This document shows, one piece after another, positions 24,660 through 56,853 of a stretch of 64,000 nucleotides of DNA. Position 1 is the first letter of the stretch. Each line of letters starts with the position of its first letter. A model generated the notes under the pieces. It had not been told where the DNA came from and made no database searches. It saw only the letters and a program-made list of their open reading frames with translations. The DNA comes from a virus (Duplodnaviria > Caudoviricetes). The translations under genes and the position numbers were made by a program. The stretch lies in IMG/VR virus record IMGVR_UViG_3300020050_009209; one strand, 5' to 3'.

Positions 24660-25742
24660 ATGCGAGTAAAGCTTAGTGTTCTGGACAGATTCATTGCTGC
24701 AAGAGTAGAGAGGCACTGGCGACTATTCCTGGCTATGTCAGTAGCCGATGCAGCTAAAATTCTTGAGGTGTCTGAGGATGCCTCCCCAGAAGACCTCAAG
24801 AAAGCTTACAAGCGTAAGGTAATCGAGAACCACCCTGATCGTGGCGGAAGCAACGAGAAGATGGTTGAAGTCAACGTAGCTATGGAGGTCCTAGAGGGGA
24901 AGCGTAGACCCTCCTCTCAACCTTCCAACACTTCTGAACCTGCTTGGCAGCAACAGTCTGAACGACCTAAACCCAAGCCAGTAAGGACTTCCTTTGCAGA
25001 CGCGAAGAGTGAAGCTGGGATTCCTTCTGGGGTGGAGTGGAAGCTTAGAGCTAATACAGCCTTTGGTGGGTATGGAGATAAGAGCATTGCGGCTGTCGTA
25101 GTTTACGGTCAAACTGCATCCCAGCATATTTTCGTAGGTGTGCATCACTACACCTCGCAGAATGCCTTTACAGGGGAAGACGTTGATGTTTGGACGATGT
25201 TCAGTAGGGAGTACCGGCTAGAGAACACGGTAAGTCTAGATAAGCTAGCACCAAAGGCGTTCAAGGATCTGTACAGCTCTTTTGAGGGCCTAAATAAGGG
25301 CTTCAACGGCAAAGTGTCCTTCCTATCTGATGGCTTCGTTCTCAACGAGGGTGTCATGTTCAAGCATGGCCAAGAGATGGCATTGAAGGATGCTCTCGTA
25401 GAGCTTGGAGTTACTGAGCAGGATGCCGACCGAAAGTTGTCCGTAGTCATGCGTCTTAGCTCCTCTGGAACCTCCTTTCCAAAGAAAGAGGTTATTACGT
25501 TGATCATCAACGGCAGAGAGTACGCCCTAAAGGACGAGTCCATCGAGTTTATCCAGCGGAAAACAAAGGTGGTATCCTCAGTCTTTGGGAACTACTACTA
25601 CTACTCGGATGAGAAGAAGGACCTAACTAGGTCAAAGAATGGTGCTTCTGTCCTCAAGTACCTCTCGGAAAAGCTTGTTTTAGAGCCTCAAGAACTACGT
25701 GATCTACTACTCAAAGCCTCCATTCAAGTGAGTAAGAAGTGA
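24660..25742 (+). CDS. J-domain (DnaJ-like) protein, paralog of 54452..55693
   Basis: AAKILEV...LKKAYKRKVIENHPDRGGSNEKMVEVNVAMEVL with intact HPD motif. Confidence 0.85.
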   Translation: MRVKLSVLDRFIAARVERHWRLFLAMSVADAAKILEVSEDASPEDLKKAYKRKVIENHPDRGGSNEKMVEVNVAMEVLEGKRRPSSQPSNTSEPAWQQQSERPKPKPVRTSFADAKSEAGIPSGVEWKLRANTAFGGYGDKSIAAVVVYGQTASQHIFVGVHHYTSQNAFTGEDVDVWTMFSREYRLENTVSLDKLAPKAFKDLYSSFEGLNKGFNGKVSFLSDGFVLNEGVMFKHGQEMALKDALVELGVTEQDADRKLSVVMRLSSSGTSFPKKEVITLIINGREYALKDESIEFIQRKTKVVSSVFGNYYYYSDEKKDLTRSKNGASVLKYLSEKLVLEPQELRDLLLKASIQVSKK

Positions 25743-26122
25743 GACTAGCCGCTAACTTACTACCACCTCTCAAGGAAATGACCACGGTGCCCTTGTTTAA
25801 GGAGCCCCTTGGTAATCTAGACGCTATGGATATCAGCGTTCGAGCCGTTGCTTGGGCATTGACATGTAGAGCGCGCAAGCTAGATACCTCTACTGTTCAT
25901 GCCCAATACTACGCTAGAAAAACTGAGGTTCGTAGTCTTTTGACGGCGGGTTGGTACCCAGTAGCTATTTTCCAGTCTGATACCTCTGGGTTGATTTGGG
26001 AGGGAGTGATTATGGGGTACGACCTAACGCATTTTGAGTTGGCTATCCAACCTAAGGGTACTTTTATCCAAGTAATGGATTCACTGCCGGAACTCTTAGC
26101 TCTAATCGTCGAGGCGCCATGA
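25739..26122 (+). CDS. Hypothetical protein
   Basis: 127-aa ORF with 4-nt overlaps on both sides. Confidence 0.55.
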   Translation: MRLAANLLPPLKEMTTVPLFKEPLGNLDAMDISVRAVAWALTCRARKLDTSTVHAQYYARKTEVRSLLTAGWYPVAIFQSDTSGLIWEGVIMGYDLTHFELAIQPKGTFIQVMDSLPELLALIVEAP

Positions 26123-26682
26123 CCCTACCAGAATCCCCTCCAGCGATTGTAGAGCCATGTTCAGGGACTTGTGTTCAAGCCGAGGACATGAAGGTGTTAG
26201 TTCAAGTCCTAAAGGACAAGCAGTGCCTTCAGAAGACTCCTCCTACGTTCCAACTAGACCCCATTACAATCGTAACAGACGTAGAGGGGAGGGTCTATTT
26301 TTCTGGGGACCAGCCTAACCCATACACCCTAAAGGTCCAGTGGTGTAATTACACTGTAACTGGAACAGGGAAGTTGTCCGTTGTCGTGGCCAAGAAAGAG
26401 CCTCCTGTTTGGGGGTTTAGGTTTCGACCCAAGTTCGCAGGTAGCTTCCTATTCCTAGATGCCTTTGAGCGACCTACCGCAGCGGATGCCATCGACGTTG
26501 GGTTTCTTTGGGACTTCCTGTACTACAAGCAATTCAACCTCAACGTAGCCACGGGGTTCAGGTCTGTTGGGGCTGGGCTTGGGGTTGACTTGACGCGAAA
26601 TTTTGGGTTGGTTCTTGGTTACGCATTCTCTTGGTGGACCTTACGAAGCAACCCGCAGGCTGGCGTCTTTTTTTCGTTCTAA
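26119..26682 (+). CDS. Protein with C-terminal amphipathic beta-strands (outer-membrane-barrel-like)
   Basis: Alternating aromatic/Gly strands ending in AGVFFSF; no signal peptide visible. Confidence 0.45.
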   Translation: MTLPESPPAIVEPCSGTCVQAEDMKVLVQVLKDKQCLQKTPPTFQLDPITIVTDVEGRVYFSGDQPNPYTLKVQWCNYTVTGTGKLSVVVAKKEPPVWGFRFRPKFAGSFLFLDAFERPTAADAIDVGFLWDFLYYKQFNLNVATGFRSVGAGLGVDLTRNFGLVLGYAFSWWTLRSNPQAGVFFSF

Positions 26683-26689
26683 GGCTATT

Positions 26690-27574
26690 ATGCAAACTAG
26701 AGTTGTAGCTAGGTACCTATGTGCAAAGGCAGTCAGCCTCCTTCCAGAGTTCAAGCTAGCGCTTGTTGCATGGGAACAGGGGGATGAGCAGCCAATAATG
26801 GAGTTCATCCAAAGGGTACTTGACATCATCTTTCCAGAGGGGGGAACGACTCCGCCATCATGGTTCTATGCCCTTGGAACGGCAAAGCGTACGACTATCA
26901 ATTGGATCCAAAAAGAGGGGCAGCGTTGGTTACGATCCCTACCTGGCTACACGGCAGACCTTTGGAACCCAGAGGCTCCTAGTTCAAGGTTCTACAATTT
27001 TCCAGACCCTAAGCTGCAAGCGCAGAGGATGCAGGAACACACGGTCAAGGAACTAGAGGAGTGGGGTAAAAAGCTACGTACGCTGGAGATTGCCAGTCAA
27101 GGGGGTAATGAGGACCTTGAGATTAAACGAGGTGGATTCACTGTCATTCCAATGCCAGGACTGAAGAAGGTTGAAATTGAAGGTGCACTTGAAGCGTTGG
27201 ACGCAGCCGTCGCTAAGATTCGGCTAAAGTTCCCACAGGTTATCTACGGTAAGGTGTACCTATCTACTCACCTCGCAGCCAAAACAGCAGCTCATTACGC
27301 ACATTGGGACGATACAATCTACATAAGTGTGAGAGCCCGCAAGCGGTTTGATGATGTTTACACGCTTACCCACGAGTTTGGGCATAGGCTTGACAGAAAG
27401 TTTGTGTCGAGTGACATCCGCAAGGAGTTTCGTAGGCTGTCTGCACAAAAAGAGCTAGCGGTTACCCCGTATGGAGCCACTGACCCAGCGGAGAACTTTG
27501 CTGAGGCGTTTGCCCACCTTGTTCTTGGGATGCCTCTTGCGCCAGAGCTGCAAGCAGTTCTATCAGCGATTTAG
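26690..27574 (+). CDS. Zincin-like metallopeptidase, paralog 1
   Basis: HEFGH...TPYGATDPAENFAEAF. Start moved to ATG 26690 (MQTRVVARY), downstream of the preceding stop. Confidence 0.75.
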   Translation: MQTRVVARYLCAKAVSLLPEFKLALVAWEQGDEQPIMEFIQRVLDIIFPEGGTTPPSWFYALGTAKRTTINWIQKEGQRWLRSLPGYTADLWNPEAPSSRFYNFPDPKLQAQRMQEHTVKELEEWGKKLRTLEIASQGGNEDLEIKRGGFTVIPMPGLKKVEIEGALEALDAAVAKIRLKFPQVIYGKVYLSTHLAAKTAAHYAHWDDTIYISVRARKRFDDVYTLTHEFGHRLDRKFVSSDIRKEFRRLSAQKELAVTPYGATDPAENFAEAFAHLVLGMPLAPELQAVLSAI

Positions 27575-27632
27575 GTACTTTCCGAGTAAAATCAAGGGGT
27601 GTGAACTTTTTGGAGACCCCCCCTACTCCGTT

Positions 27633-27638
27633 GGTGTA
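27633..27638 (+). promoter_or_regulatory. GGTGTA upstream motif (also at 33301, 43496, 50694, 51427)
   Basis: Same hexamer 9-11 nt before five start codons of non-structural genes. Confidence 0.45.
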
Positions 27639-27649
27639 CCCTTTACCCC

Positions 27650-30600
27650 ATGGCAAAGTTGTCCGACGAAGACCAAACGGCTATTATCTATGACCGAGTG
27701 AAGCAGGTTCGGGCATCAAAAACTCTTGAGCTGAAACCATCCCCTAGGTTACGGCAAGAGATTACAGGGTTGGATGGGCAACCTCAACCCTTCCGAATGA
27801 GATACTACCAATCTCAGGGTATTTTCCACCTCCTGACCGTCAACCGCATGGTTCTTGGTGACGGAACGGGACTAGGTAAGTGTGAACCGGCGGACACACT
27901 GATCATAAGCTCAGAGGGCCAGATACCTATTCGCTCTTTGGCACCCAAAGAATTTGAATCTAACTCAACGGAAGGATTTTACCCCTTGGACCGTCCTTTG
28001 GCAGTTTGGACGGGCCGAAGAATGGCGACCGTTCCTAGGTTCTACTGGGGTGGTAAAAAGCCAACGGTCAAGGTTACAACCAGAAATAACTACAGAATTG
28101 AAGGGACTCTTGTCCACCCACTCTTAGTTCGGAGTGAGAAGGGTCACGTCTGGGAAGAGGCTGGGTCCCTTCAGGTCGGTGATCACTTATGCGTAGAGAG
28201 GAAAGAAGCTCCTTTCCCTGAGGTTGAGCCAGAAGTAAACTTTGTACCCAAGCTCCCACACGGGTGTACCAAAATTTATAGGTACCAGCGTTTTCTATCT
28301 GAAGACCTTGCCAGTCTGATTGGTTACGTAGTGGGTGAAGGTAATAGAGCCCCTTACGGGATTTGCGTAACTCAATGCAGCACCCTAAACCCAGAGACCC
28401 ACCAAGAGATTAGAGACCTTTTTTTCAAGGTATTTGGGTGGTCTGGGAATGAGAATTGTGGTCAACGTGACATCCGAATCCATGTGTCAAGCGTCGGGAT
28501 TAAAGAGTACTTAGCTGCTTGTGGGGTAGGGGAGGAACTTTCACGGACCAAATTCGTTCCAGATCTCATCCTTCGAGGAACACGTTCCTCCGTTCGAGGG
28601 TTCCTTTCGGCTATGTTTGAGGGTGAGGGCTCTGTTGAGGTTGAGGGTGGGGTTGAGTTTTCTTCTTCCTCCGAGCAGCTCATCCGAACCATTCAAGTAT
28701 TGCTGCTACGTTTCGGAGTTGTTTCAACGCTTTCCCCCAAGGTAATCCCAAATAATCCGCACACTTACTGGAGGCTTTGCTTCTTTGGGGACGATGCTCG
28801 CACCTTCCAAGCAAGTATTGGGTTTAGGTCCGCCAGAAAAAAGGACCTTTTGCGGGACGCAATCAAAAAAACATCTAACCCTAACAAGGATGTGGTGCCC
28901 TTCTCCGGCCCTATGGTCCAAAGCCTCAAGACCCTTATTCTTAAGGCAACCTCACAAAACTTGGTAAGTAGGAACCAATATGGCTGGGGTATTAAGCAGT
29001 TTGGGGAGAGTTTTCAAAGCACACTCAAGCATGTCATCAACAAGAAGCGTAACCCAACTTACCAATGGCTTGGTAAGTTACTTGATATCTCTCGTGGTCT
29101 TGGACTCTCGACTACCGAAGAGTACCTTGAAGTCCTTGGGGTTTACGAGCGTCGATTCTTCTATGACCCCATAGTGAAAGTTGAGTACGGCGAAGCAGAT
29201 GTAATGGATATCGAGGTTGAGGATCCTGACCACTGTTATGTTGCCAACGGACTCGTGAGTCACAATACGATTCAGGTTTTAGGCGCATTTTGCTACACTT
29301 GGGACCGAGATCCTCAGATGAAGGTGATTGTAGTCTGCCCTAAGTCAGCCATTCGCCAATGGGGGGCTGAGGTGGAGAAGTTCACCGTGGGAGTCAAGAC
29401 CTTTGTGGCCACTGGGACGGTGGCTCAACGTAAGGCTACCTATGCCGCATGGGAAGCGGAAACCGAGTCTAGGGCCATCCTCGTCATGAACTACCACACG
29501 TTGGTGAGAGACTGGGACCAGGACATTCAGAAGGTGGCTCCTCCTCCTGGGTCGAAGCATGGGACTCAACCTACCCTTGGGTTGGGGTTACTCGATGGTA
29601 TGACCAGCCGAATACCTAAGATTATCGTATGCTTCGACGAGTGCGTAGCCTTCAAGAACCCCTCTACAAAGACCCACAAGGTCTGTAAGGCACTGTCTGT
29701 CAAATCGAGCAAGGTCTGGGGACTGACGGCTACCCTCCTGAAGAACAACTTGATGGAGGGATTTGGCATCTACCAAGTGATTCGACCTGGGACGTTCAAG
29801 TCAAAGACTGCGTTTCTTGAGGCCTACTGCGTCACGGAAATGCAGCGAGTAAAGGGAGGGATCAAGGTCCCTATTGTTGTAGGATATCATAACCTTGTAC
29901 ACTTCCGGGATACCATTGACCCATTCTTCTACGGTCGACCGAAACATGTCGTAAGTGACGAGCTACCTACTCTTACTACACGGGAGATTTTGTGTGAGCT
30001 GTCCCCTCAGGAGGACGCCAAATACCAGGAAGCGCTGGCCGGACTGCTGGAGCTTGGAGATGGGGATCAGAAAGACTATCGGGAGACCAGAGAACTCACA
30101 AGTCTTATCTACACGCAGGAAGTCGTAAACTCTCTTGCCCTTCTCAAGTTTGAGGAGGGGGACACCCAATTCGAGGGTAAAAGTGCCAAGGAGCAAGCGC
30201 TCCTTGACCTACTTACAGAGGAGTTTGATGGGGAGAAGGTCATCGTCTACACTAGGTTTGAAAAGCTCGTTGGAAGGCTCCAGAAGCTGCTAACCGCTGA
30301 GAAGATCAAAAGTGTAAGGATCACCGGTAAGGAAAAGGATACCGACCGTAAGAAGGCCCAAGACAAGTTCCAGGACCTTACGAGTGATGTGTCCGTCGTG
30401 TTCATCACGGATGCAGGGTCTGAGGCCATCAACCTCCAGGCTGCTTGCGGTATGGTGTTTTTCGACTCCCCTTGGTCGTGGGGTCAGTATGTCCAGTTGC
30501 TTGGACGTATGATTCGTATCGGGTCTATTCACCAAAGCGTCCTAGCTATTCATCTAGTCGCTGAGCGACACGGTAAGACGTCCAAAAAAGAGACGATTGA

Positions 30601-30742
30601 CCATCAGGTAATCAAGAAGTTGCGCAAGAAAAAGGGTCTGAGTGACCAAATTCTCGGGGAGGCTGCTGTGGGAGCTTTGAAGTTTGATCGATCCGAGACA
30701 GATCTTCGTGACCTGTACAGTGCAGTGCAGGGGGCGAAATGA
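27650..30742 (+). CDS. SNF2-family (SF2) helicase, intein-containing
   Basis: Walker A GDGTGLGK|T split by an intein; VVCPKS, FDEC, GLTAT, SEAINLQ, DSPWS and QLLGRMIRIG motifs. Confidence 0.9.
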   Translation: MAKLSDEDQTAIIYDRVKQVRASKTLELKPSPRLRQEITGLDGQPQPFRMRYYQSQGIFHLLTVNRMVLGDGTGLGKCEPADTLIISSEGQIPIRSLAPKEFESNSTEGFYPLDRPLAVWTGRRMATVPRFYWGGKKPTVKVTTRNNYRIEGTLVHPLLVRSEKGHVWEEAGSLQVGDHLCVERKEAPFPEVEPEVNFVPKLPHGCTKIYRYQRFLSEDLASLIGYVVGEGNRAPYGICVTQCSTLNPETHQEIRDLFFKVFGWSGNENCGQRDIRIHVSSVGIKEYLAACGVGEELSRTKFVPDLILRGTRSSVRGFLSAMFEGEGSVEVEGGVEFSSSSEQLIRTIQVLLLRFGVVSTLSPKVIPNNPHTYWRLCFFGDDARTFQASIGFRSARKKDLLRDAIKKTSNPNKDVVPFSGPMVQSLKTLILKATSQNLVSRNQYGWGIKQFGESFQSTLKHVINKKRNPTYQWLGKLLDISRGLGLSTTEEYLEVLGVYERRFFYDPIVKVEYGEADVMDIEVEDPDHCYVANGLVSHNTIQVLGAFCYTWDRDPQMKVIVVCPKSAIRQWGAEVEKFTVGVKTFVATGTVAQRKATYAAWEAETESRAILVMNYHTLVRDWDQDIQKVAPPPGSKHGTQPTLGLGLLDGMTSRIPKIIVCFDECVAFKNPSTKTHKVCKALSVKSSKVWGLTATLLKNNLMEGFGIYQVIRPGTFKSKTAFLEAYCVTEMQRVKGGIKVPIVVGYHNLVHFRDTIDPFFYGRPKHVVSDELPTLTTREILCELSPQEDAKYQEALAGLLELGDGDQKDYRETRELTSLIYTQEVVNSLALLKFEEGDTQFEGKSAKEQALLDLLTEEFDGEKVIVYTRFEKLVGRLQKLLTAEKIKSVRITGKEKDTDRKKAQDKFQDLTSDVSVVFITDAGSEAINLQAACGMVFFDSPWSWGQYVQLLGRMIRIGSIHQSVLAIHLVAERHGKTSKKETIDHQVIKKLRKKKGLSDQILGEAAVGALKFDRSETDLRDLYSAVQGAK
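27881..29266 (+). mobile_element. Intein (462 aa) with LAGLIDADG endonuclease in the helicase Walker A
   Basis: Starts CEPADT, block B GTLVHPLL, LIGYVVGEG and FLSAMFEGEG motifs, ends YVANGLVSHN followed by Thr. Confidence 0.92.
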
Positions 30743-30957
30743 GTGGCGGATGTGACACGGAGTGGTCCGACCTCGACCGCGCCCGAGTGACCATTGCTAA
30801 TCTCACCAAAGAGAGAGACACGCTGAAAGAAAAGGTGGAGGCTCTAATGAGGGAGCGCAACACGCTCCGCACGGACGTTGACCGTTACTTCGAGCGGATG
30901 GTGAGGCTGGAGGGCGAGCGTGACCGCGCCGAGAAGGACGATGGAGAAGTGAAGTGA
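30739..30957 (+). CDS. Small coiled-coil protein
   Basis: Heptad pattern LTKERDTLKEKVEALMRERNTL. Confidence 0.55.
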   Translation: MSGGCDTEWSDLDRARVTIANLTKERDTLKEKVEALMRERNTLRTDVDRYFERMVRLEGERDRAEKDDGEVK

Positions 30958-31841
30958 CCCTAGATCCTGAGTTCTTTGCGGTTGACCCATTGGTAGAGTC
31001 CTGCCCTAACTGCGTAAAGTGTGGCGGTAGGGGCTACATCATGAAGGATGGAGATCCTTTCACTCAAGTGGAGTGTAATAACCTGTTCCTGAGAAGGGTG
31101 GGGTTGAAGTTAGGGGTTGAAATCGCGACAGCTGCCACTCTAGCAGATTCCCCACTCTACGTATGGGGAGGGAAGGATAAGACTCAGAGTAACCTCTTCC
31201 TAAAGGGGGACTGGGTAGACCTACTACCTCACCTAAAGTGCGCACTCCTTCGCAAGTTCTACAGCTGTGGAGTAGAGGCCTTTAGTTTCCGGGTGGTCAC
31301 GGATGAGCGACTCAAGAATGTGTACCTATCGAATGAGGCCTACACAGCGAAGCAGCGTAAGAAGCGAGATGAGGGGGAGGTCTACAACTCGCTTTCCGAC
31401 CTCATTGGCAACTCCCACAACCTCATCATCATTAGGCTTGGCTTCCTCGGCTACAAGAACGTGGCTATGCCCGGAATCCTAAAAGAGACCCTGATGATGA
31501 GGCAAGCTCAAGGAGTTCCAACTTGGGTAGTAGAGGACCCAGACTCCCCTTTTGTCCCAGGGCATTTTTCGTGGAGTCTAGATGTTAGCGATTACATAAC
31601 GAGGTACTACGAGACGTTGGACTTTACTTCGGCTGTAAGGACTCCTAGGTCAGGTCTTCCTGAGGAAGAAGACGAAGGTCTTGGTCTGGATACGCCAGAG
31701 ACGGAGGTAGCTCCAGAGCCTAAGCCAAGAGTCAAAGCTCAAGCGCCAGTGGTGGTTGAAGGGGTGGCTGACTTCAGCTCAGACCTTGCGTTGGGTACGG
31801 GGTACGTCAAGAAGAACTACAAGAAGGGAGGTAGAGGTTGA
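30954..31841 (+). CDS. Degenerate DnaC/IstB-like helicase loader with N-terminal Zn finger
   Basis: CPNCVKCGGRG; NLFLKG strand without GKT; LIIIRLG at the Walker B position; R...PTWVV; directly upstream of DnaB. Confidence 0.45.
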   Translation: MTLDPEFFAVDPLVESCPNCVKCGGRGYIMKDGDPFTQVECNNLFLRRVGLKLGVEIATAATLADSPLYVWGGKDKTQSNLFLKGDWVDLLPHLKCALLRKFYSCGVEAFSFRVVTDERLKNVYLSNEAYTAKQRKKRDEGEVYNSLSDLIGNSHNLIIIRLGFLGYKNVAMPGILKETLMMRQAQGVPTWVVEDPDSPFVPGHFSWSLDVSDYITRYYETLDFTSAVRTPRSGLPEEEDEGLGLDTPETEVAPEPKPRVKAQAPVVVEGVADFSSDLALGTGYVKKNYKKGGRG

Positions 31842-33307
31842 AATCCATACTTCGTAGCGTAATTGACATTGCAGGTAATGAAGACCAGGTAAATCTCATC
31901 GCCAACCTCCAAAAGTTGATGGTGTCCAAGGTTGAATGGACTCAACCAGCGGATCAGCGAATTTACGACCAAATTACGCACTACTTCCAGCTAAAGTACG
32001 AAGTCCCATCCGGACAGACGCTCATGGACTTCTTCGAGGTCCAACGAGACCAGGAAGCGATTGAGCGGGTCAAGGACTTTACGAATGTGCAGGCGTACAT
32101 TCGTACGAACTTTGCGCACCTCCTAACTACAACCCTTGAGAAGCAAGGCCAGATTAAGGCGATCACGCTCTTCAAGGAAGCCGGAGAGATTGCAGGTCGA
32201 GGGCTCATCATCGACAAGGAGAAGAAGCAAGGAGTAGCTGAGGCTCTTGCACATGTCTATGAGCATGGGTCTAAGCTAATTGCATCCGAGTTCAACTCTA
32301 GAGCAGAGGGGGATGCTCGGGATGACGGGCAAGAGGTTTGGGATCGTTATCAGCACGCCAAGAACAACCCAAGTGAAGCTTGGGGTAAGCTATGTGGGCT
32401 AAACGAGATAGACAAGGTAATCAAGGGAGGTAAGAAGGGAGAGCTTTGGCTCCATGCTGCATTCACGGGTGAGCTGAAGTCTACCTTTGCTCTGAATTGG
32501 GCCTACAACCTAGTTACCAGGTACAGGACCAACGTATTCTATGCCACCCTAGAGATGCCCTACACCCAGGTTGTAGACAAGCTCTATGTCATGCATAGCT
32601 CGAATCATCGATTCCGAGCTTTGGGCTATGCACCTCTCAGTTACGCAAAGGTGATAGCTGGGGAGTTGACTCCAGAAGAGGAGAAGTTCTGGCAACTGGT
32701 CATCACGGACTTCACTACAAACGAAGAGTACGGGTCTCTCCATTTCTGGTCTCCGATTGAGGATGCAAACACGGATGACATCCGTGTTAAGGCAGAAATT
32801 GTCAACCAGAAGCACAGCCTTGGTCTTGTGATCATCGACCACGGTGGAATCGTACAGGCAAGACGAAAGAAGCAGTCGAAGGACTACGTTATCGAGTTGA
32901 ACTCTGTCATTCGCGACTCAAAGCGGCTGGCACTCCAGTTCAACAATGGTCAGAAGATTCTCGTTATGCTGCTATTCCAGATCAGCCGAGAGGGTAAGGA
33001 GTACGCAGACAAGAATGAGGGTCGCTACAAGCTGAGAGCACTGAGCTACGCAAATGAGGCGGAGCGGTCTGCGGATTACGTAACCACTACGTATCTGAAC
33101 GAAGAGCATCGAACAGCTGGGACCACGATCTTCGACATGTTGAAACGACGGGATGGGGCGTTCTTTAAGCCATTCCTTGCAGGGATCGATTGGAATACTA
33201 GTCGTATCTACAATCGAGACACCTTCAGCAATGTAGGGGATCGGGGGTTGGGAATCGACAACGAGAGAGACATATCTCAAGCTCTAGCGGGCATGTTTTC
33301 GGTGTAA
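31838..33307 (+). CDS. dnaB: DnaB-like replicative helicase
   Basis: GELWLHAAFTGELKST (variant Walker A), TLEM, LVIIDH, FQISREG, ANEAERSAD and KRRDG motifs. Confidence 0.8.
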   Translation: MKSILRSVIDIAGNEDQVNLIANLQKLMVSKVEWTQPADQRIYDQITHYFQLKYEVPSGQTLMDFFEVQRDQEAIERVKDFTNVQAYIRTNFAHLLTTTLEKQGQIKAITLFKEAGEIAGRGLIIDKEKKQGVAEALAHVYEHGSKLIASEFNSRAEGDARDDGQEVWDRYQHAKNNPSEAWGKLCGLNEIDKVIKGGKKGELWLHAAFTGELKSTFALNWAYNLVTRYRTNVFYATLEMPYTQVVDKLYVMHSSNHRFRALGYAPLSYAKVIAGELTPEEEKFWQLVITDFTTNEEYGSLHFWSPIEDANTDDIRVKAEIVNQKHSLGLVIIDHGGIVQARRKKQSKDYVIELNSVIRDSKRLALQFNNGQKILVMLLFQISREGKEYADKNEGRYKLRALSYANEAERSADYVTTTYLNEEHRTAGTTIFDMLKRRDGAFFKPFLAGIDWNTSRIYNRDTFSNVGDRGLGIDNERDISQALAGMFSV

Positions 33308-44349: not shown

Positions 44350-44352
44350 AAA

Positions 44353-48983: not shown

Positions 48984-49739
48984 TTGGTAAAACTAGCTGC
49001 CGTCCAATTCGCCCCATCCTTCCGTAAGAAGCGGGAGAATGTGCAGCGTATGGCTCGACTTGCAATCGAGGCTTCTGCTGAAGGGGCTAAACTTATTGTT
49101 TTTCCTGAGTTGGCTACAACTGGGTACTCCTACATGAGCACCAAGGAAGCCGAGGAAGACGCTGAGATCGTAGGATTTGGTCAGCCCACAATGGACTTCT
49201 TCCTAGGTATAGCTCAGAAGACCAATGCCTGCTTGGTTTGGGGGATGGTCGAAAAGGACTCTGGGTCTGGTAAGCTCTACAATAGCCAAGTCTATCTTGA
49301 GCCAGGAGGCTACTTCGAGAAGTACGCCAAAATCAATCGTTGGGGAAATGACTTTCTTTGGGCTACCCCAGGGAAGTCAAACCCTCCGGTCATACGAGCG
49401 ACCTTTGACCGTAAGGACCTACGCGTAGGTCTTCTCGTATGCCGGGACATACGGGATAAGGTTAACGATGACTGGACGAACCTCTACTCGCCTGGGGATG
49501 CAGACGTGGTAGCCTTCTCTGCGAACTTTGGGGATGGTGGGTTCCCAGCAGTCTCCTGGGTTGACTTTGCCATGGACAACAAGACCACTTTGATCGTATC
49601 GAATCGCTACGGTGAAGAGGGTGGCAAGCCGAATAAGTTTGGTGGGGGTGGGTCCTGTATCATTGAGCCGTCTGGTACGGTGCATTGTGAGGGACTCCAG
49701 TGGAATGCAGACTGCATCATTTACTCTGAGGTGAAGTGA
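48984..49739 (+). CDS. Carbon-nitrogen hydrolase (nitrilase superfamily)
   Basis: Catalytic triad motifs LIVFPEL (E), YAK (K), GLLVCRD (C); AGGAG 8 nt before the TTG start. Confidence 0.88.
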   Translation: MVKLAAVQFAPSFRKKRENVQRMARLAIEASAEGAKLIVFPELATTGYSYMSTKEAEEDAEIVGFGQPTMDFFLGIAQKTNACLVWGMVEKDSGSGKLYNSQVYLEPGGYFEKYAKINRWGNDFLWATPGKSNPPVIRATFDRKDLRVGLLVCRDIRDKVNDDWTNLYSPGDADVVAFSANFGDGGFPAVSWVDFAMDNKTTLIVSNRYGEEGGKPNKFGGGGSCIIEPSGTVHCEGLQWNADCIIYSEVK

Positions 49740-50680
49740 TGCCGTCAACCCTTGATACCAAGATCGCGTTGAAGGTAGCCTACTTCTTTCAAGACCGTAT
49801 GACAAAAAGGGTTGCAGCGAAGTTCTCGTTCACAGCTGGGTTGAATGAGGAGCTACTTGCCAAGTTTGGCAAGCTATTCCAGGACTTCAGTGGGGATGCT
49901 GCTCTTGAGGTTGCCAATTGGTTTAAGGACACCTTCCGATTCGACGTGTCCAAAACTCCACAAGGTCAAAGAGACCTCAAGCTAAAAGCTGAGAAGTTGC
50001 ATTGGTGGCTAACGCAATCCGCAAGCCTTAAGTCCAGGTTCAATGGGCAAGGGGTTCAATTCTCCAACGAGGAGGATACCCCCGACCTAGCTTGGGCCCG
50101 AGGCGGTAAAGAGGCCAAGCGGGTTTGGGAGGAGGAGGTCCAGCCTTTGGCGGGGGATCTCATCCGATACTTCTCCAACGAGGGGAGTAAGATCGTCCCC
50201 AAGGAGGTTCAGGTTGGGGGTAACACTTACCTGAACCTTGTTGGCTTCGACCAGAAGAAAATTGGTCAGTACGTTACGGCTATGGAAGCTGTTTTCGGGG
50301 ACGTCAAGGGTTGGAGACGGAAAGCTTTTGCTGGGGGGCTTACCGTAGCCTTTGCTGGCCCCAAAGACTTTCGAGGTACTGCGGCGGGCAAGTACAAGTC
50401 CGACCAAGACATCCTCTACGTAAGAGCTACCCCGAATGTTCTAAAAAGGGCAGGAGGCAGCTACGGCGCTCTTGACTACATTCTCATTCATGAGCTAGGT
50501 CACAGGTACGAGAGAAAAGTTGGAACAAAGTTTGACTTTGAGCGACAGGAGTGGTGGACCAGCCCCTACAGTAAGAAGGACGGAGAACAGTTCGCAGAGC
50601 TGTTTGCAATCTCTAACTTCGACCTTAAAGGGCCATGGAACCAAGAAGTCGTAGCGAAATTCGACGCTTTGATGGGGTGA
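49739..50680 (+). CDS. Zincin-like metallopeptidase, paralog 2
   Basis: IHELGHR...SPYSKKDGEQFAELF; TGATG coupling to the nitrilase gene. Confidence 0.75.
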   Translation: MPSTLDTKIALKVAYFFQDRMTKRVAAKFSFTAGLNEELLAKFGKLFQDFSGDAALEVANWFKDTFRFDVSKTPQGQRDLKLKAEKLHWWLTQSASLKSRFNGQGVQFSNEEDTPDLAWARGGKEAKRVWEEEVQPLAGDLIRYFSNEGSKIVPKEVQVGGNTYLNLVGFDQKKIGQYVTAMEAVFGDVKGWRRKAFAGGLTVAFAGPKDFRGTAAGKYKSDQDILYVRATPNVLKRAGGSYGALDYILIHELGHRYERKVGTKFDFERQEWWTSPYSKKDGEQFAELFAISNFDLKGPWNQEVVAKFDALMG

Positions 50681-50708
50681 AGTCCCTGGGTTCGGTGTAT
50701 CCCTCTAC

Positions 50709-50975
50709 ATGCGGGAACCTGAATTCATACTGACCAACGGCACAAAAGTAATTACTCACGCGAAGTTGGACCCTACAACTGGGTTTTCAATTACGCCCAA
50801 ACACATTGCTTTACGAAAGCCAGCGACGAGTGGAGAAATCTACGGGGTTGTAGGTGGGCATGGAGGGGATGTGTATTGGGTGCTGCATGAGGGGGATGTG
50901 TACCCAGCAGCTTACTGCTACTCAGAATTTGAGCTAGTAGCTGAAGCTCCTTCCCAGGTGGTAGACCCATGCTGA
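50709..50975 (+). CDS. Hypothetical protein
   Basis: 88-aa ORF, SH3-like beta pattern, preceded by GGTGTA. Confidence 0.55.
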   Translation: MREPEFILTNGTKVITHAKLDPTTGFSITPKHIALRKPATSGEIYGVVGGHGGDVYWVLHEGDVYPAAYCYSEFELVAEAPSQVVDPC

Positions 50976-51433
50976 TCGATGCAACTGGTCTTGTGGTCTT
51001 CGACGCATCGCTGTACTCAGGGCGATTGGTTGTGGTCCTAGAAACGGATGGTCGTCCTGGACTTGGTCTTCTTGAGGGCCCTACCATGGAGCGGGCCCCT
51101 ACAATCGAAGACCCTGAGTTTTCTGCGGATGGGTTCGAGGTATTTGAGGTAATTCTCAAGTCAAACTCAAAATCAAATCAAGAGTTAAGATATCACTTTG
51201 CGGCTACCTCCTTGAAAAGCGGAGCTTACACTACCTACCCAACCGGTCGAGAGCTAATTTTAGTAGACTCTGAAGGTGATTGGAGCGTTGTTTTTGCAGG
51301 GGTTGAGGTTGCGCTACCTGACTACGGTAAGGTTGTTTTGGGTGTGAAAGGAGCACGTCAAGGACAAGAGAAAGCCTTCCGAGTCAAAGAGACGGCACGT
51401 AAGTCGCGTAAGTTGCGTAAGGGATCGGTGTAG
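50969..51433 (+). CDS. Hypothetical protein
   Basis: 154-aa ORF overlapping the upstream gene. Confidence 0.5.
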   Translation: MLIDATGLVVFDASLYSGRLVVVLETDGRPGLGLLEGPTMERAPTIEDPEFSADGFEVFEVILKSNSKSNQELRYHFAATSLKSGAYTTYPTGRELILVDSEGDWSVVFAGVEVALPDYGKVVLGVKGARQGQEKAFRVKETARKSRKLRKGSV

Positions 51434-51441
51434 GCTACCTC

Positions 51442-52788
51442 ATGGTCAAGTGTAGTTTCTGTAAGCGTCCAAGAAACGAAGTTAAGAACCTCATTTCAAG
51501 CTCCGACACGGATGAGACCTCAATCTGTGACCGATGTGTACGGTCAGCAATGAAGGAGCTGGAGGTAGGCTCTCGTAAGGGTGGGTTCGAGAAACCTAAG
51601 GAGGAGCCTCTCAAGCCTCCCATGGAGATCAAAGCACACTTGGACGCCTACGTCATCGGGCAAGACCAAGCAAAGCGCACGATTGCTACGGCTGTCTACA
51701 ACCATTTCAAGCGTCGCCAAGTTGCCAAAGAGGGTAAGCTTGAGATTGAGGTAGCTGGGGGCCTAGAGGCTGTAGAGCTGGACAAGAGCAACATATTGCT
51801 TTTGGGTCCATCGGGCACTGGAAAGACCTATCTCGCTCGCACCATCGCTAAGATGTTGAATGTGCCGTTCTTTGTGGCAGACGCGACACGCTTGACTCAA
51901 GCAGGCTATGTTGGGGATGATGTCGAGACGCTTCTACAAGGGCTACTCCAGGATGCTCAGGGTGATGTGGAGCGGGCCCAGTGGGGGATCATATTCCTGG
52001 ACGAGGTAGACAAGATTGCCAAGTCGGGTGGTCGAGATCGTTCGGGCTATCGAGATGTCACCGGGGAAGGAGTCCAGCAGTCACTTCTAAAGCTCTTGGA
52101 GGGGTCGAAGGTCAACGTGCCTCGCTCTGGACGTTCCGGGACCTCTATGAACGCTACAGACGTACTGGACACCACCAACATCCTCTTCATTTGCGCTGGC
52201 TCTTTCGCGGGAATCGAGCCTATCATCGAAAAGAGACTCAACAAAGGATCCCGTCTTGGGTTTGGGTCAGAGTCACGAGAGAAGTTTGACCAGACAAAGA
52301 CCTACCTAGCCGCTTGCCCCGAAGACCTATTGGAGTTCGGCATTATCCCCGAGATGCTTGGTCGGCTTCAAGTTTTGACGACCACGATTGAGCTGAGTGA
52401 GGAGGATATGATCCGAGTCCTCACTGAGCCAAGAAACTCCATCATCAAGCAATTTAGAGCCTTGTTCAAGTTGGACGGGGTAAGCCTAGAGTTTGACCCC
52501 GAAGCACTTCTCGCGATTGCTAGGAAGGCGAAGAAGATGCCTACAGGAGCAAGGGCTCTTCGTTCGATTGTCGAAGAGGCTCTTGGACAGGTGATGTACT
52601 CCCTCCCAGGGTCTGGTGCTATCCAGGTTCGAGTAACCGAGCAAACGATTGAGACAGGGGTTGCAATGGTTACGAAAGAAACTCAGTGCAAGCACCATTA
52701 TGCGGACAAGAGCGACCCGGAGGAAAACTGTACCCATTGCGGTCAAAACCAGGGGGAACTTGAGGAGAAGAAAAGCAGACGCAAGTGA
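51442..52788 (+). CDS. clpX: ClpX-like AAA+ unfoldase
   Basis: CSFC...CDRC Zn domain, VIGQ..AK, KSNILLLGPSGTGKT, GYVGDDVE, DEVDKI, RDVTGEGVQQ.LLK, LGF loop, GARALR. Confidence 0.93.
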   Translation: MVKCSFCKRPRNEVKNLISSSDTDETSICDRCVRSAMKELEVGSRKGGFEKPKEEPLKPPMEIKAHLDAYVIGQDQAKRTIATAVYNHFKRRQVAKEGKLEIEVAGGLEAVELDKSNILLLGPSGTGKTYLARTIAKMLNVPFFVADATRLTQAGYVGDDVETLLQGLLQDAQGDVERAQWGIIFLDEVDKIAKSGGRDRSGYRDVTGEGVQQSLLKLLEGSKVNVPRSGRSGTSMNATDVLDTTNILFICAGSFAGIEPIIEKRLNKGSRLGFGSESREKFDQTKTYLAACPEDLLEFGIIPEMLGRLQVLTTTIELSEEDMIRVLTEPRNSIIKQFRALFKLDGVSLEFDPEALLAIARKAKKMPTGARALRSIVEEALGQVMYSLPGSGAIQVRVTEQTIETGVAMVTKETQCKHHYADKSDPEENCTHCGQNQGELEEKKSRRK

Positions 52789-52815
52789 TACCCCTTTGAT
52801 AGGACTTCTTAGAAG

Positions 52816-54066
52816 ATGACTCTACCTATCATCCAAAACGTAGTAGCTAGGTTCAAGCTTGCAGATTCCATTGGGGACCCAAGTGCCCTCATTCGAGAGT
52901 TTGAAGTAGTACTCAATACTATGGCTTCGTTCGAGGCCAAGCTTCCTCAGGCAAGGGCAGCAGAGAACATACTCAAAGAGGCCCAAAGGATAGCCATTCT
53001 CCCTATTCAAAGCCGCCCCCCTTCAACGCCTGAAGGAGATAACGCAGTACGAAATGCTGGGCGGGAGTATGCCGTCCACAAGTCCACTTTCGCATCGGCT
53101 GTGAAGTACTCCTACCCTAGATTCCAGAGATCTGGGTACGCTCTGTTCTTCTCTCTCCTCCAGCAGTATGACCTCCCCCCAAAAATCCGTAAAGGGGTTG
53201 AAGCTGCGGCGAAGTACTACGCGAAGAGTAGAATCAATGTGAACCCAAAGCAATGGGAAGTTCTTGACTTGTTCGAGAAGTACATGAGCTTGTACCGAGA
53301 GCAATTTGAGCTAGCGACGATTGCGCTTACTCAGAGTAAGCATCGAGTAGAGGGTGAGGAGGGGTCCTCTGCAAAGCTAATCAAAGCTGGCCCGTTTACC
53401 ATTGTGAACACTGGTGGGTTTGACGAGAAGGTCATACAGACGGTATCGGAGGTAGTAGAGAAAGCAGCTAGCCTGCTTCAGCGTAAGGGGCTAGGTAAGG
53501 TGTGCTACGGGGACATCCTAATCACAAATACCCTACTGAAGTCAAACGTCCTTGCCTTCTACATGTCCGACAAGGACGAGCTATTTGTTCGAGCCAACTT
53601 ACGCAAGGGGCATGATGTTGTCCGTCTCGTGATCCATGAGCTAGGGCATAGGCTCCATTGGAAGTTCCTTAAGTCAAAAGACAAGGACCTCCAGATGCTC
53701 TACTACAACCTAGGTAGGTCGGAGCAGGATCGAGTGCGGGAGCTACTCAACAACCCTGAGTCCCATCCCAAGCCAGGGGAGACGATGCAGTCCAAGGGTA
53801 AGACCTACGAGGTCGTTAGAACGGTCTACGACAAGGTTCACCTAGTAAGGCAAGATGATCCTAAGCACACGGCAACTCTTCCACTTCTGAATTGGATTGA
53901 GATGAAGTCTGGGCTTACGACTGGACTGGACCTTACTCCAGACTCTGCCTTCATCACGGGGTACGCGAAGACGAGTTACAAAGAGAACTTTGCCGAGATG
54001 GTGGCATTCTATTGCTTGGACCAACTACCTGACGCCCAAGTGAAGATGCTAGAAGCCATCCTATGA
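52816..54066 (+). CDS. Zincin-like metallopeptidase, paralog 3
   Basis: IHELGHR...ITGYAKTSYKENFAEM, with an insertion of roughly 80-90 aa between the motifs. Confidence 0.75.
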   Translation: MTLPIIQNVVARFKLADSIGDPSALIREFEVVLNTMASFEAKLPQARAAENILKEAQRIAILPIQSRPPSTPEGDNAVRNAGREYAVHKSTFASAVKYSYPRFQRSGYALFFSLLQQYDLPPKIRKGVEAAAKYYAKSRINVNPKQWEVLDLFEKYMSLYREQFELATIALTQSKHRVEGEEGSSAKLIKAGPFTIVNTGGFDEKVIQTVSEVVEKAASLLQRKGLGKVCYGDILITNTLLKSNVLAFYMSDKDELFVRANLRKGHDVVRLVIHELGHRLHWKFLKSKDKDLQMLYYNLGRSEQDRVRELLNNPESHPKPGETMQSKGKTYEVVRTVYDKVHLVRQDDPKHTATLPLLNWIEMKSGLTTGLDLTPDSAFITGYAKTSYKENFAEMVAFYCLDQLPDAQVKMLEAIL

Positions 54067-54416
54067 AGTTATTTCTTGATGACATGCGTCGGGAACCAGT
54101 TGGTTGGGATCGAGTCCTTACCGCAGATGCGTGCATTGAAGTTCTTAGCGATCAGCGCTACGTACGAGTGGAAGAGCTTTCGTTAGACCACGACTTGCAT
54201 GAGGAGCACTACGATACCTCACGAGACCCGACAACGTACCAACACAAGACGGGTATGGCTGTTGTGGATTGGCTAGCTAATGCGCACATAGACCTGTGGC
54301 CCGCAATCATTTACGTGCATTCCCTGAACGAGCGCGCACGAGGGGAGATGGTCAAAAGATTGAAGGGGTATGCGCCTCCTGAGGTGCAAGTATTCGACAG
54401 GCCTAGACTCTACTAG
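54063..54416 (+). CDS. Cyclic-phosphate-processing receiver-like domain protein
   Basis: KLFLDD.R..P.GW, LSLDHDL, TG..V..WL, I.VHS.N. Confidence 0.75.
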   Translation: MKLFLDDMRREPVGWDRVLTADACIEVLSDQRYVRVEELSLDHDLHEEHYDTSRDPTTYQHKTGMAVVDWLANAHIDLWPAIIYVHSLNERARGEMVKRLKGYAPPEVQVFDRPRLY

Positions 54417-54451
54417 GCCGAACTTCTTTTGATACTCTACCTCAGGGTAGG

Positions 54452-55693
54452 ATGCCAAACTCAATTGACCGAATTGCACATAGGGTACACTCAATTGACC
54501 GAATTGCACATAGGGTACTAACTCGACTTGCTGCCGAGCGAATCGCAAGTCGATACCTCTATGCGAAACTCTTTCTGGCTATGTCCCTTCAAGAGGCAAA
54601 GGTCATTCTAGGGTTTCCTCCTCAAGCCTTCCCAACCGCAGATGAGATTACAAAGGCCTATCGTAGGAAGGCCATTGAGAATCATCCTGACCGTGGGGGC
54701 AGTCACGAGAAGATGGTAGAGGTCAACGTAGCTAAGGACATCTTGGACGGTAAGAGCCGTGCAACCTTCCGACCTGAACCTCCACCCCCTCGCCCAAAGC
54801 CACCACCTCCTAAGGAGCCAGATGAAGTTCTTGAGGGGCAGTCCTTTGAGGACGCTATGGGTAACTCAGGAGTTCCCGCTGGCGTAGAGTGGAAGTTCAT
54901 TTCCATTCCAGAGTGGTATTGGGAAAAGAGCTTCTACCCCAGTCATCGAATCTGGGTACTCTACGGGCAAACCGATGAAAAGCATGTGTTCCTAGCTCTC
55001 AAGCAGAGAGGGGAGAGTTCAGGCACTGTCCCTACAGATAAGGGTCAGACGAAGATCATGAAGGATTGGCAGTCTAGTGAGATTGACGTCCCAATCTCAC
55101 AGAACATTGCCAAAATTGCGGCAAAGTATATCAAACTCCTAGCCGATGGTTGGACAGATGTGCCGAAGATGCCAACCCCAAAGAAGTACATCGCTTGGTC
55201 TGGTGGTAAACCTACTGAAGTCCTAGTTGAGAAGACGCCTCGATCGGGTGGAGCTGCTTTGAAGGATATTCTTGCAGGTACTGGACTACTTAACGATGAT
55301 GACCCAACCATTACCGGACGTAAGAGTGTTGTTGAGGTCTTCACGAAGACCTCAATGGAACGCTACAATCGTTGCAAGAAACTCAAGGCAGAGGGTAAGA
55401 TCCCTTACGTCACCAACGCTCACCAGTACGACTTCTTTGTTCGTGTAAATGGGAAGACAGAGCAGTTGGAGGATGAAACCATCGAGAAGATGATTCGTGT
55501 GTTCATCCCATTCGTCCTAAGCTGGGAGATTAGCGAAGGGGCCCCGAAGAACCTCACGCGTATGCGTGGTGGTCGCCTCAAGATTGGCCCCAAAGAGGCG
55601 ATTGCTGAGCTACTGAAGTGCCTGACGGGAGAGCCCGCCTGGTTGAAAGAAGCGCTCAAGAAAGCGGTAGACGAGTACCCGGAGTCTACCTAA
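54452..55693 (+). CDS. J-domain (DnaJ-like) protein, paralog of 24660..25742
   Basis: ITKAYRRKAIENHPDRGGSHEKMVEVNVAKDIL; shares LFLAMS and GVEWK blocks with the paralog. Confidence 0.85.
   Translation: MPNSIDRIAHRVHSIDRIAHRVLTRLAAERIASRYLYAKLFLAMSLQEAKVILGFPPQAFPTADEITKAYRRKAIENHPDRGGSHEKMVEVNVAKDILDGKSRATFRPEPPPPRPKPPPPKEPDEVLEGQSFEDAMGNSGVPAGVEWKFISIPEWYWEKSFYPSHRIWVLYGQTDEKHVFLALKQRGESSGTVPTDKGQTKIMKDWQSSEIDVPISQNIAKIAAKYIKLLADGWTDVPKMPTPKKYIAWSGGKPTEVLVEKTPRSGGAALKDILAGTGLLNDDDPTITGRKSVVEVFTKTSMERYNRCKKLKAEGKIPYVTNAHQYDFFVRVNGKTEQLEDETIEKMIRVFIPFVLSWEISEGAPKNLTRMRGGRLKIGPKEAIAELLKCLTGEPAWLKEALKKAVDEYPEST
54459..54518 (+). repeat. Perfect 30-bp tandem duplication encoding SIDRIAHRV twice
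   Basis: ACTCAATTGACCGAATTGCACATAGGGTAC x2. Confidence 0.95.
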
Positions 55694-55788
55694 TGAGTGA
55701 CTTAGTTGTCACCAGGAACGTAGTTGCTAGGTTTCAGCGGATCTCTCAGACTTACCTGAGGAGGCGGCTACGTGTGAGGAATGTCTGA
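55693..55788 (+). CDS. 31-aa basic micropeptide carrying the NVVARF tag (not in ORF track)
   Basis: TAATG coupling to the J-domain gene; MSDLVVTRNVVARFQRISQTYLRRRLRVRNV. Confidence 0.4.
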   Translation: MSDLVVTRNVVARFQRISQTYLRRRLRVRNV

Positions 55789-55887
55789 GGAGATTCGCTA
55801 AGTTAGAAGCTAAAGGCGAGGCCATTTTCTCGAACGGGTATTGAAAGTAGACCACGGTGGGGTCGGGGTAAGGTAAGATGTCAACCA

Positions 55888-56853
55888 ATGTCAACTACTG
55901 CCAAACAACGTTTACTGTTAGCTGCAAATCGCATCGCAAGTCGTTATAGGAGTCTAGGAGTAACAGCAACCAAGGAATCGGAAGAGATAGTTGGGGAAAC
56001 CTCCGAGCAGCTTAAAGATTCAGAGGCTATCAGAAGTGTCGTAGCAAGATTTTCCCAGACTCAGAGCGATCGTGGTGGGTCGGAAACCTCAAACCGGATT
56101 GCTTTGAGACAGTACTTAGCGTCTCAAACCGCAAGAGCTGAGGTAAAGGCTGAGGTAAAGGCTGATCTTTACACTCCAACCCACCCTCCTATTGTGGCTC
56201 CGGCTCCTGTTCGGTCATCCTCAGTTGCAGTTCAACCCGAGCTTCCAAAATCCCCCCCACCCAAAGTTGTAGCTGAGCCCTTAGCACCTAGAGTGTTGGG
56301 TTCTTCGGTAGCTTTTGATGAGTTCGAGATTACATTTGAGGAAGAAGAAGAAGAACCTGAAGCTTCTACCCTTGAAGAACCTGAGGCTACCCTCCTTGAG
56401 GCCTCTACCCTTGAAGAAGAACCTGAGGTTCCAAAAGAAGAGGTATCCGTTCCTGTCCTTCTACCTGTAGTGAGTTCCTCCCAAATCGAGGAGGTCCCTG
56501 GTCTTGTTGAGGATCGCGTTGCTGAGGCTAAGTCAATCCTTGATGCTGCAAGTGCTCTTAGCGCACTAAAGTCCCTAGGCGTGCCGGTTGACATAGAAGC
56601 GTACTGTAAAAAGTTCAAGATTCCGTTTGGGCAAGAAGTCCCAAAAGAGACCTCTCCCGTGAAGCCCGCTCCAACTGCCAAGGTGGAGCAACCTAATGCT
56701 GAGTTGGAGCGCTCGTTTGCAGAGAGAAATGCTGCCTTTCTTGCTGATCTAAAAGACTATAGCAAGTTAGGTCTGACTTTTGACTTAGCCCAACTTGCTG
56801 CTTTACATGGCGTACCCGTGCCGACCAAGAAGGATGACTTAGATGATCTATAA
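55888..56853 (+). CDS. Low-complexity acidic/Pro-rich protein with repeated N-terminal tag motifs
   Basis: RIASRY, SVVARF and RIALRQY in the first ~75 aa; Glu-rich EEPEASTL repeats. Confidence 0.6.
   Translation: MSTTAKQRLLLAANRIASRYRSLGVTATKESEEIVGETSEQLKDSEAIRSVVARFSQTQSDRGGSETSNRIALRQYLASQTARAEVKAEVKADLYTPTHPPIVAPAPVRSSSVAVQPELPKSPPPKVVAEPLAPRVLGSSVAFDEFEITFEEEEEEPEASTLEEPEATLLEASTLEEEPEVPKEEVSVPVLLPVVSSSQIEEVPGLVEDRVAEAKSILDAASALSALKSLGVPVDIEAYCKKFKIPFGQEVPKETSPVKPAPTAKVEQPNAELERSFAERNAAFLADLKDYSKLGLTFDLAQLAALHGVPVPTKKDDLDDL

Follow-up and report, generated by a model that had tools for sequence, protein, structure and literature searches.

Tag carriers of the window and of the genome

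The window, a 64,000-nucleotide stretch covering bases 296,615–360,614 of genome G000 (a virus record of 379,936 bp that has direct terminal repeats), has all of its long open reading frames (ORFs) on the + strand, and a number of these carry near their N-terminus a short peptide, here termed the tag, with the form [RNS][VI][VA][AS][RK][YF] or one close to it. A preliminary description of the window had placed this hexamer, or a looser form of it, in seven ORFs, and the motif was recovered in all seven just where it had been placed. The nearest relative of the genome in GenBank is an uncultured 485-kb phage.

Three of the carriers are zincins. The gene at positions 26690–27574 encodes a lethal-factor/PPEP-like zincin of 294 amino acids with HEFGH at residue 228 and the tag RVVARY at residues 4–9 (nucleotides 26699–26716); this protein is approximately 85 residues shorter than its orthologs of 365–390 amino acids, the part that it lacks being internal, with the HExxH helix on one side and the C-terminal Glu helix on the other. 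The zincin at 49739–50680 (313 amino acids, HELGH at residue 251) has the tag RVAAKF at residues 24–29 (nucleotides 49808–49825), with a degenerate copy, KVAYFF (nucleotides 49772–49789), upstream of it, and both copies are kept in the ortholog of the related genome G001. The largest of the three (52816–54066, 416 amino acids, HELGH at residue 274) has NVVARF at residues 8–13 (nucleotides 52837–52854) and a weak match to Pfam Peptidase_Mx1. A search for related loci with this single zincin gave no matches, and the same was found with protein P0184.

Two further carriers are J-domain proteins, in which the Pfam DnaJ family scores 39.5 and 32.6 bits against a gathering cut-off of 27.8. The one at 24660–25742 (360 amino acids, Pfam DnaJ E 6e-10) had been listed for the loose form FIAARV; the variant SVLDRF at residues 6–11 (nucleotides 24675–24692) fits the tag better, and an xVLDR[FY] variant is also present in orthologs of other tagged families. 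The second, at 54452–55693 (413 amino acids, Pfam DnaJ E 9e-8 over residues 52–100), has two degenerate RIAHRV copies (nucleotides 54470–54487 and 54500–54517) followed by RIASRY at residues 30–35 (nucleotides 54539–54556), just before the J-domain. An acidic orphan protein of 321 amino acids (55888–56853), with no Pfam family and no homolog among the five relatives compared below, carries two tags, RIASRY from residue 15 (nucleotides 55930–55947) and SVVARF from residue 50 (nucleotides 56035–56052). The remaining ORF, of 31 codons (55693–55788, with NVVARF at nucleotides 55717–55734), had been described as a tagged micropeptide. Approximately 38 nucleotides of its DNA align locally with the beginning of the 52816 zincin gene (score 30, against a shuffle maximum of 23), which indicates that it is probably the duplicated 5′ end of a gene like 52816 and not an independent tagged gene.

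The preliminary description had counted six otherwise different ORFs. The tags are indeed present, but as the zincins are distant paralogs of each other, and the J-proteins likewise, these ORFs amount to approximately four independent families within the window. Across the whole genome of G000, and those of its relatives, the tag is found on some 15–20 otherwise unrelated proteins, and an all-against-all BLAST with the tags cut off left at least 11 unrelated tagged families, the only links being those among the zincins (25–31% identity), between the two J-proteins and within one further pair. The idea of a portable N-terminal tag on unrelated proteins is thus upheld at the protein level.

Carriers beyond the window, identified with the relaxed core [VI][VAL]x[RK][FYW], include a minus-strand zincin (starting MALRVATRF), a 579-amino-acid zincin, a pair of paralogs of 353 and 364 amino acids, a truncated gene, orphans of 226 and 203 amino acids, and three head-module proteins. 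An HE[LF]GH motif is present in five tagged proteins, including the three zincins of the window, and no Pfam family was found in ten further tagged orphans. The families tagged repeatedly across genomes are the zincins, the J-proteins, a topoisomerase, a 132-amino-acid protein and the 353-amino-acid family. The tag had not been seen on the enzymes of replication or metabolism in the preliminary description, and its absence holds for the polymerase, the helicase, the primase and the enzymes of nucleotide metabolism; the type IB topoisomerase, however, carries it. A module reading F-x-[ST]-P-E-A-L-K-x-Y-L-H-D-H-P-x-A-D was observed downstream of the tag or a tag-like sequence in three genomes (G000 233346, G015 136272 and G001 220680), and it is also present inside the post-portal protein described below.

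Sequence, position and conservation of the tag

Scanning all six frames of G000 with the strict hexamer gave 10 matches, every one in the coding frame of a real ORF, at codons 8–80. The called proteome contains nine matches, whereas 300 shuffles of its residues gave 0.52 on average and never more than 3, an excess of approximately 18-fold which excludes chance. The relaxed core occurs at 1.33 per 1000 amino acids in the first 20 residues and at 0.13–0.5 elsewhere (3–10 times denser), and with all 10 genome matches lying near ORF starts, the enrichment at N-termini over internal positions that had been proposed is borne out. Carriers were identified using anchored regular expressions on called genes; iteration of a position-specific scoring matrix in six frames drifted into Arg/Ser-rich out-of-frame noise.

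A logo of 85 N-terminal instances from six genomes has R before the core in 41 of the 85, L/I and A at positions −4 and −3, and L/A followed by A/K/S downstream of the aromatic residue, a pattern that is predicted to be a short amphipathic helix. The consensus can be written as [LI]-[A]-x-R-[VI]-[AVL]-x-R-[FYW]-[LA]-x-[AK], covering approximately 10–14 residues, sometimes in tandem, with its onset usually 3–9 residues past the initiator Met. The Arg codons vary between copies (AGG, AGA, CGC, CGA and CGT) and, apart from the 55693/52816 pair, no DNA similarity above shuffled controls was found among the gene starts of the tag copies; both observations argue that the constraint acts on the peptide. 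Five copies do have the heptanucleotide GCTAGGT in common.

The preliminary description had further proposed cleavage after an Ala shortly past the tag. Little information is present past the aromatic residue, the best position being +3 with A in 23 of 85 instances, and no conserved motif occurs within 16 residues, so this proposal is not supported. Nor is there support for the LFLA|MS sequence of the two J-proteins as a processing site; it belongs to the conserved beginning of this J-domain family, seen in orthologs as [AS]-M-S ahead of helix I, and reflects their paralogy. Among other candidates considered, NQLASRF in a conserved tail-region protein (window position 3517) was rejected as a tag, its orthologs not keeping the look-alike, and was used as a negative control. 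Readings as a PP1-type RVxF motif, a Tat signal or a signal peptide were dropped on grounds of unfit spacing and composition. No paper describing an R-V-A-x-R-F/Y motif was found in the literature searched.

The conservation of the tag can be followed best in the zincin at 26690, for which 59 database relatives of approximately 370 amino acids were identified on contigs of up to 620 kb, nearly all starting M-x(2-8)-R-V-[AVL]-x-R-[FY]-L-x-A-K. In an alignment of 34 orthologs (40–95% identity), the first R is kept in 28, V/I in 33, the aliphatic residue in all 34, the second R in 33 and Y/F in 27, with residues 1–3 and the fourth tag position varying freely. This pattern indicates a tag that is position-specific and under purifying selection at the level of the protein. 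H228, E229, H232 and E268, that is, the HExxH motif with its downstream Glu, are invariant in the same 34 sequences. Some zincin relatives have tandem tags, two (P0007 and P0044) have a 60-amino-acid domain before the tag, and P0330 (720 amino acids) comprises two tag-plus-zincin modules in series, the second tag being internal.

An AlphaFold2 model of the zincin at 26690, built on the alignment of 34 orthologs, has a confidence score (pLDDT) of 91.6 overall and of 54 for residues 1–10, which are modelled as a helix without confident packing; in the model, the N-terminal segment looks like a free docking peptide awaiting a partner. The best PDB matches of the model by Foldseek were anthrax lethal factor and Pro-Pro endopeptidases (PPEP), with a probability of approximately 1.0 and a weak E of 0.06, and a precomputed Pfam ATLF assignment is present on the relative P0330.

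Distribution of the tag was examined in five whole IMG/VR relatives (G001, G009, G010, G015 and G022; 363–485 kb, 44–60% GC), the controls being Tunturi_5 (a cultured phage of Tunturiibacter), a 120-kb part of Bacillus phage G, and the smaller phages G038 and G043. The pattern R[VI][VAL]xR[FYW] was found 10 times in G000, 11 in G001, 13 in G009, 13 in G010 and 12 in G015 (all five being genomes of 360–440 kb) and five times in G022, where 0.8–2.3 would be expected, mostly near N-termini; it was found in none of Tunturi_5, the 120 kb of phage G, G038 and G043. The users of the tag, judged from these sequences, are one clade of uncultured phages of 320–620 kb. The six tag-using genomes have 54 proteins in common.

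Phage G was observed to have an N-terminal motif of its own, M-K-R-L-I-K-K or [ST]-R-L-K-K (NC_023719, approximately 3.3–124 kb). Of 178 ORFs, 10 have it among their first 15 residues, where its density is 3.75 per 1000 amino acids against 0.15 elsewhere, and six of the 10 (gp9, gp10, gp12, gp13, gp17 and gp20) are in the head cluster gp9–gp20, around the portal gp14 and the protease gp19; gp13 reads MKRLISKTAARYAAS. Phage G, a cultured megaphage with a 37%-identical major capsid protein (MCP), may have in this motif a counterpart of the tag.

The head module, ClpX and a second tag

Family searches located a head block at 186–213 kb of G000, consisting of TerL, the type IB topoisomerase, the portal, a 1205-amino-acid protein, a 306-amino-acid protein, the prohead protease, a Q-rich scaffold-like protein, a 215-amino-acid protein and a 290-amino-acid HK97-type MCP. 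Both the large terminase gene (191530–194889) and the prohead protease gene (204280–207237) contain a Hint/LAGLIDADG intein, and the proteases of G009 and G015 are free of inteins. Tagged genes in this module are those of the topoisomerase, which follows TerL, of the 1205-amino-acid post-portal protein, and of a basic 132-amino-acid protein just upstream of the terminase genes; an acidic head-module protein of 442 amino acids is tagged in three other genomes. Three to four tagged genes thus belong to the head module, with approximately a dozen elsewhere. In the post-portal protein the tag is located at approximately residues 72–80, behind a conserved charged leader, in five out of five relatives having the protein. 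No MuF domain was detected in it by family searches, and a protein atlas search gave no usable lead.

The gene of the tagged 132-amino-acid protein (190538–190936) is overlapped at its start by 4 nucleotides by a gene (188532–190541) for a 669-amino-acid protein with two Cys-rich repeats, and the gene of the 306-amino-acid protein, a zinc-ribbon protein, lies between those of the post-portal protein and the protease. Two other features of the module were observed. The portals of G000 (197982–199772) and of the five relatives have an acidic stretch and then G-R-[FY] at the C-terminus, echoing the R-[FY] of the tag, and the prohead proteases of all six genomes start with a sequence like M-A-F-L-K-Y-A.

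The MCP (209357–210229), which is compact and without a delta domain, exceeds all other proteins in conservation whichever of the five relatives is compared, its identities being 97, 89, 88, 93 and 83% where the protein medians are 59, 45, 42, 45 and 38%. It has 2038 database relatives, with more than 100 clusters at least 86% identical. In the cultured Tunturi_5 the MCP is only 47% identical and the tag is absent. Given that the tag is nearly unchanged while typical proteins are 38–59% identical, its reader should be unusually conserved, and the conservation of the MCP would fit a capsid protein held fixed by many cargo contacts.

Within the window, a 448-amino-acid ClpX (51442–52788, + strand; Pfam zf-C4_ClpX and AAA_2) with an N-terminal zinc finger is encoded immediately before the zincin at 52816, and between that zincin and the tagged J-protein at 54452 there is a gene (54063–54416) for a protein with a cREC_REC (cyclic-phosphate processing receiver) domain (Pfam E 5e-21). 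No Hsp70 and no ClpP were found in the whole genome of G000, although it encodes J-domain proteins. Two proteins in the core of all six genomes, both judged from the N-terminal sequence only, are a GroEL-like protein (G000 155909–157546) and a 338-amino-acid protein with an actin/Hsp70-type phosphate-1 motif (G000 237530–238546).

The relation of the tag to ClpX can be judged from G022 (485 kb, 92% complete by CheckV), in which no ClpX was detected by genome search with hidden Markov models or by tblastn. This phage still has tagged zincins, a tagged topoisomerase and tagged orphans, which argues that phage ClpX is not required for the tag. The tag of its topoisomerase is internal, behind a 170-amino-acid N-terminal domain read as HAD-like from a DxDGT motif. 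In G001 the ClpX gene (215750–218068) was seen to have an insert after approximately residue 125.

The genome of G000 also has a C-terminal tag, [ST]R[FY][DE]R[ILF], on unrelated small proteins. While the two tags occur in the same genome and clade, they lie at opposite ends of their carriers and differ in sequence, and the N-terminal carriers are enzymes and head proteins whereas the C-terminal ones are small orphans. In G009, G010, G015 and G022 the N-terminal tag stays the same, whereas its C-terminal counterpart is variable or missing; the counts show the two to be separate systems. The [ST]R[FY][DE]R sequence is absent in G022, so that if either tag tracks ClpX it is the C-terminal one.

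With regard to expression, 48 genes have the hexanucleotide GGTGTA approximately 15 nucleotides upstream of their start codon. Nearly all of them lie outside the structural block at 175–320 kb, and the hexanucleotide is probably an early/middle promoter or leader element. In the window it is found upstream of the genes at 27650, 33318, 39280, 43511, 50709 and 51442, the last being clpX, and the tagged genes downstream of clpX have no GGTGTA of their own. No late-promoter consensus was found in 30 structural intergenic regions.

Possible functions of the tag

The best reading of the tag is, tentatively, that it loads its carriers into the phage head, to which we assign a probability of roughly 0.45. 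On this reading the tag is a docking helix, movable between proteins, that has been added to the N-termini of many unrelated ones, and it would dock its carriers onto a conserved component of the assembling procapsid, the HK97-type MCP being the leading candidate, followed by the scaffold or the portal. Once docked, the proteins would end up inside the head and be delivered along with the DNA, making the tag a functional counterpart of the T4 capsid-targeting sequence or of the cargo-loading peptides of encapsulins; the sequences do not call for its later removal. Three observations favor head loading: tagged genes occur inside the head module, including that of the post-portal protein in five out of five relatives, the types of cargo match those of packaged polyvalent proteins, and the tag is independent of ClpX. 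The preliminary description had proposed a leader for both packaging and maturation. The packaging part is plausible given the head-module carriers and the cargo types, but maturation cleavage is unsupported.

The capsid-targeting sequence of phage T4 is a short N-terminal leader common to unrelated head proteins and Alt, including host-modifying enzymes, and is portable to foreign proteins. Here too there is a short N-terminal leader on unrelated proteins, with a putative role in packaging. The R-V-A-x-R-[FY] sequence, however, bears no likeness to the T4 leader, no conserved cleavage site follows it, it persists at internal positions, and the shell is built from a 290-amino-acid HK97-type MCP with a separate Q-rich scaffold. 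Another point of comparison is provided by the cargo-loading peptides of encapsulins, which bind to the inside of an HK97-fold shell and are mostly C-terminal and Gly/Ser/Leu-rich. Both systems have a short conserved terminal peptide on diverse cargo, and the HK97-fold shell protein of this clade is extremely conserved; the tag differs in being an N-terminal Arg/aromatic helix (as predicted) whose binding to the MCP is putative. Genes for encapsulin-type cargo lie next to the shell gene; of the tagged genes, three to four are in the head module and about a dozen are elsewhere.

With respect to cargo, the repertoire of tagged proteins resembles that of the polyvalent proteins and MuF-linked toxins of other phages in being rich in lethal factor-like zincins and host-modifying enzymes (Iyer et al., 2017, PMC5512222; Jamet et al., 2017, PMC5576092). 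Genes for polyvalent and MuF effectors are neighbors of portal genes, and packaging followed by injection has been proposed for their products (PMC5512222; PMC5576092). No domain is more frequent in phage polyvalent proteins than the lethal factor-like zincin peptidase, and among packaged enzymes there is also Alt of T4 (PMC5512222). A polyvalent protein combines its effectors with a head-binding domain in a single giant chain, whereas here they are separate genes, each with a short tag, so that tagged effectors would be, by analogy, the unfused counterpart of polyvalent proteins.

A number of points weigh against head loading. Packaging is argued from gene context and analogy, and most tagged genes lie outside the structural block. 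As clpX has a GGTGTA element and tagged genes follow it, these may be expressed together with replication genes instead of late in infection. The 85 instances have no cleavage motif in common downstream of the tag, and the tag can be internal, as in the topoisomerase of G022 and in P0007, P0044 and P0330, which indicates that a free N-terminus is not needed, unlike in the classic T4 leader. The hyper-conservation of the MCP has other possible causes, for example the geometry of a very large capsid, and the independence from ClpX is drawn from one genome, G022, which is classed as linear.

If the tag is not read in the head, its reader could be a conserved hub of the host, such as the substrate site of DnaK, host ClpX, the ribosome or RNA polymerase, although this appears unlikely. 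The core of the tag, short and hydrophobic with arginines on either side, is built as Hsp70-binding peptides generally are, in a phage that has J-domain proteins and no Hsp70; the near-invariance of the tag over phages of 44–60% GC would also fit a universally conserved host target, and the tagged genes are mostly in non-structural regions. The fixed register of the tag, with its second Arg next to the aromatic residue, is nevertheless more specific than the binding motifs of chaperones, and a host hub would leave unexplained the tags on the post-portal and other head-module proteins as well as the full absence of the tag from Tunturi_5. Another candidate reader, in place of the capsid shell itself, is a different phage-built assembly or a clade-specific adaptor, for example the 669-amino-acid Cys-rich or the 306-amino-acid zinc-ribbon protein, both of which are in the 54-protein core and have no homolog in the tag-less Tunturi_5; the 4-nucleotide overlap of the former's gene with the tagged gene at 190538 suggests coupled synthesis. 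An adaptor of this kind is quite unlikely all the same, as neither protein matches a Pfam or PHROG family, their conservation is ordinary (35–72% identity) in a way that the tag's is not, and they sit in the head module, where this explanation overlaps with capsid loading.

Recognition by ClpX of the phage or the host, as a degradation or tethering signal timing the removal of early effectors, is suggested by the location of clpX among the tagged genes of the window, at least three of which follow it, and by the resemblance of L-R-V-[VA] in the tag to the tail of SspB. The tail of this adaptor, L-R-V-V-K, docks on the zinc domain of ClpX. Like such tethering peptides and degrons (the XB tail of SspB), the tag is a short linear motif on unrelated proteins, with a partial L-R-V-V likeness and a phage ClpX nearby. 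We consider this explanation improbable: G022, 485 kb in size and without ClpX, keeps the N-terminal tag, and it is the C-terminal [ST]R[FY][DE]R tag, lost in G022, that would track ClpX instead. The N-terminal motif recognized by ClpX is polar-T/hydrophobic-hydrophobic-basic-hydrophobic, and the conserved R1, V2, aliphatic 3, R5 and aromatic 6 of the tag do not match the register of this motif (N-motif 1); the phage, moreover, is without ClpP, and structural proteins of the head module are tagged.

The absence of any common reader, with the tag explained by descent of a few paralogs, by an element acting in the DNA or RNA of gene starts, or by chance, would be in keeping with the distant paralogy of the zincins and likewise of the J-proteins, with the GCTAGGT of five copies and with the DNA duplicate at 55693. 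It is nonetheless very improbable and has been largely refuted by the at least 11 families without detectable similarity beyond the tag, the varying codons and lack of DNA similarity of the other copies, the approximately 18-fold excess over shuffles with its strict N-terminal placement, and the retention of the tag in orthologs of 40% identity.

Head loading could be taken further, to a peptide code operating across the whole clade, in which a near-frozen HK97-type MCP or scaffold would be an encapsulin-like receptor, tagged genes would be packed and injected, effectors could be swapped without fusion, and contacts with cargo would explain the fixity of the capsid. Such a code is a doubtful extension.

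Should the tag prove to direct head loading, sequence data alone would suffice to list the proteins that hundreds of uncultured huge phages inject, and the tag would point to the tools used in the first minute of host takeover, namely proteases, Hsp70 co-chaperones and a topoisomerase. It would also be a short peptide, transferable between proteins, with which foreign cargo could be loaded into very large capsids, and would account for the near-invariance of the capsid protein of this clade. Even with another reader, a label of 6–10 residues on 2–4% of the genes of the clade represents an entry point to an interaction hub of these phages.

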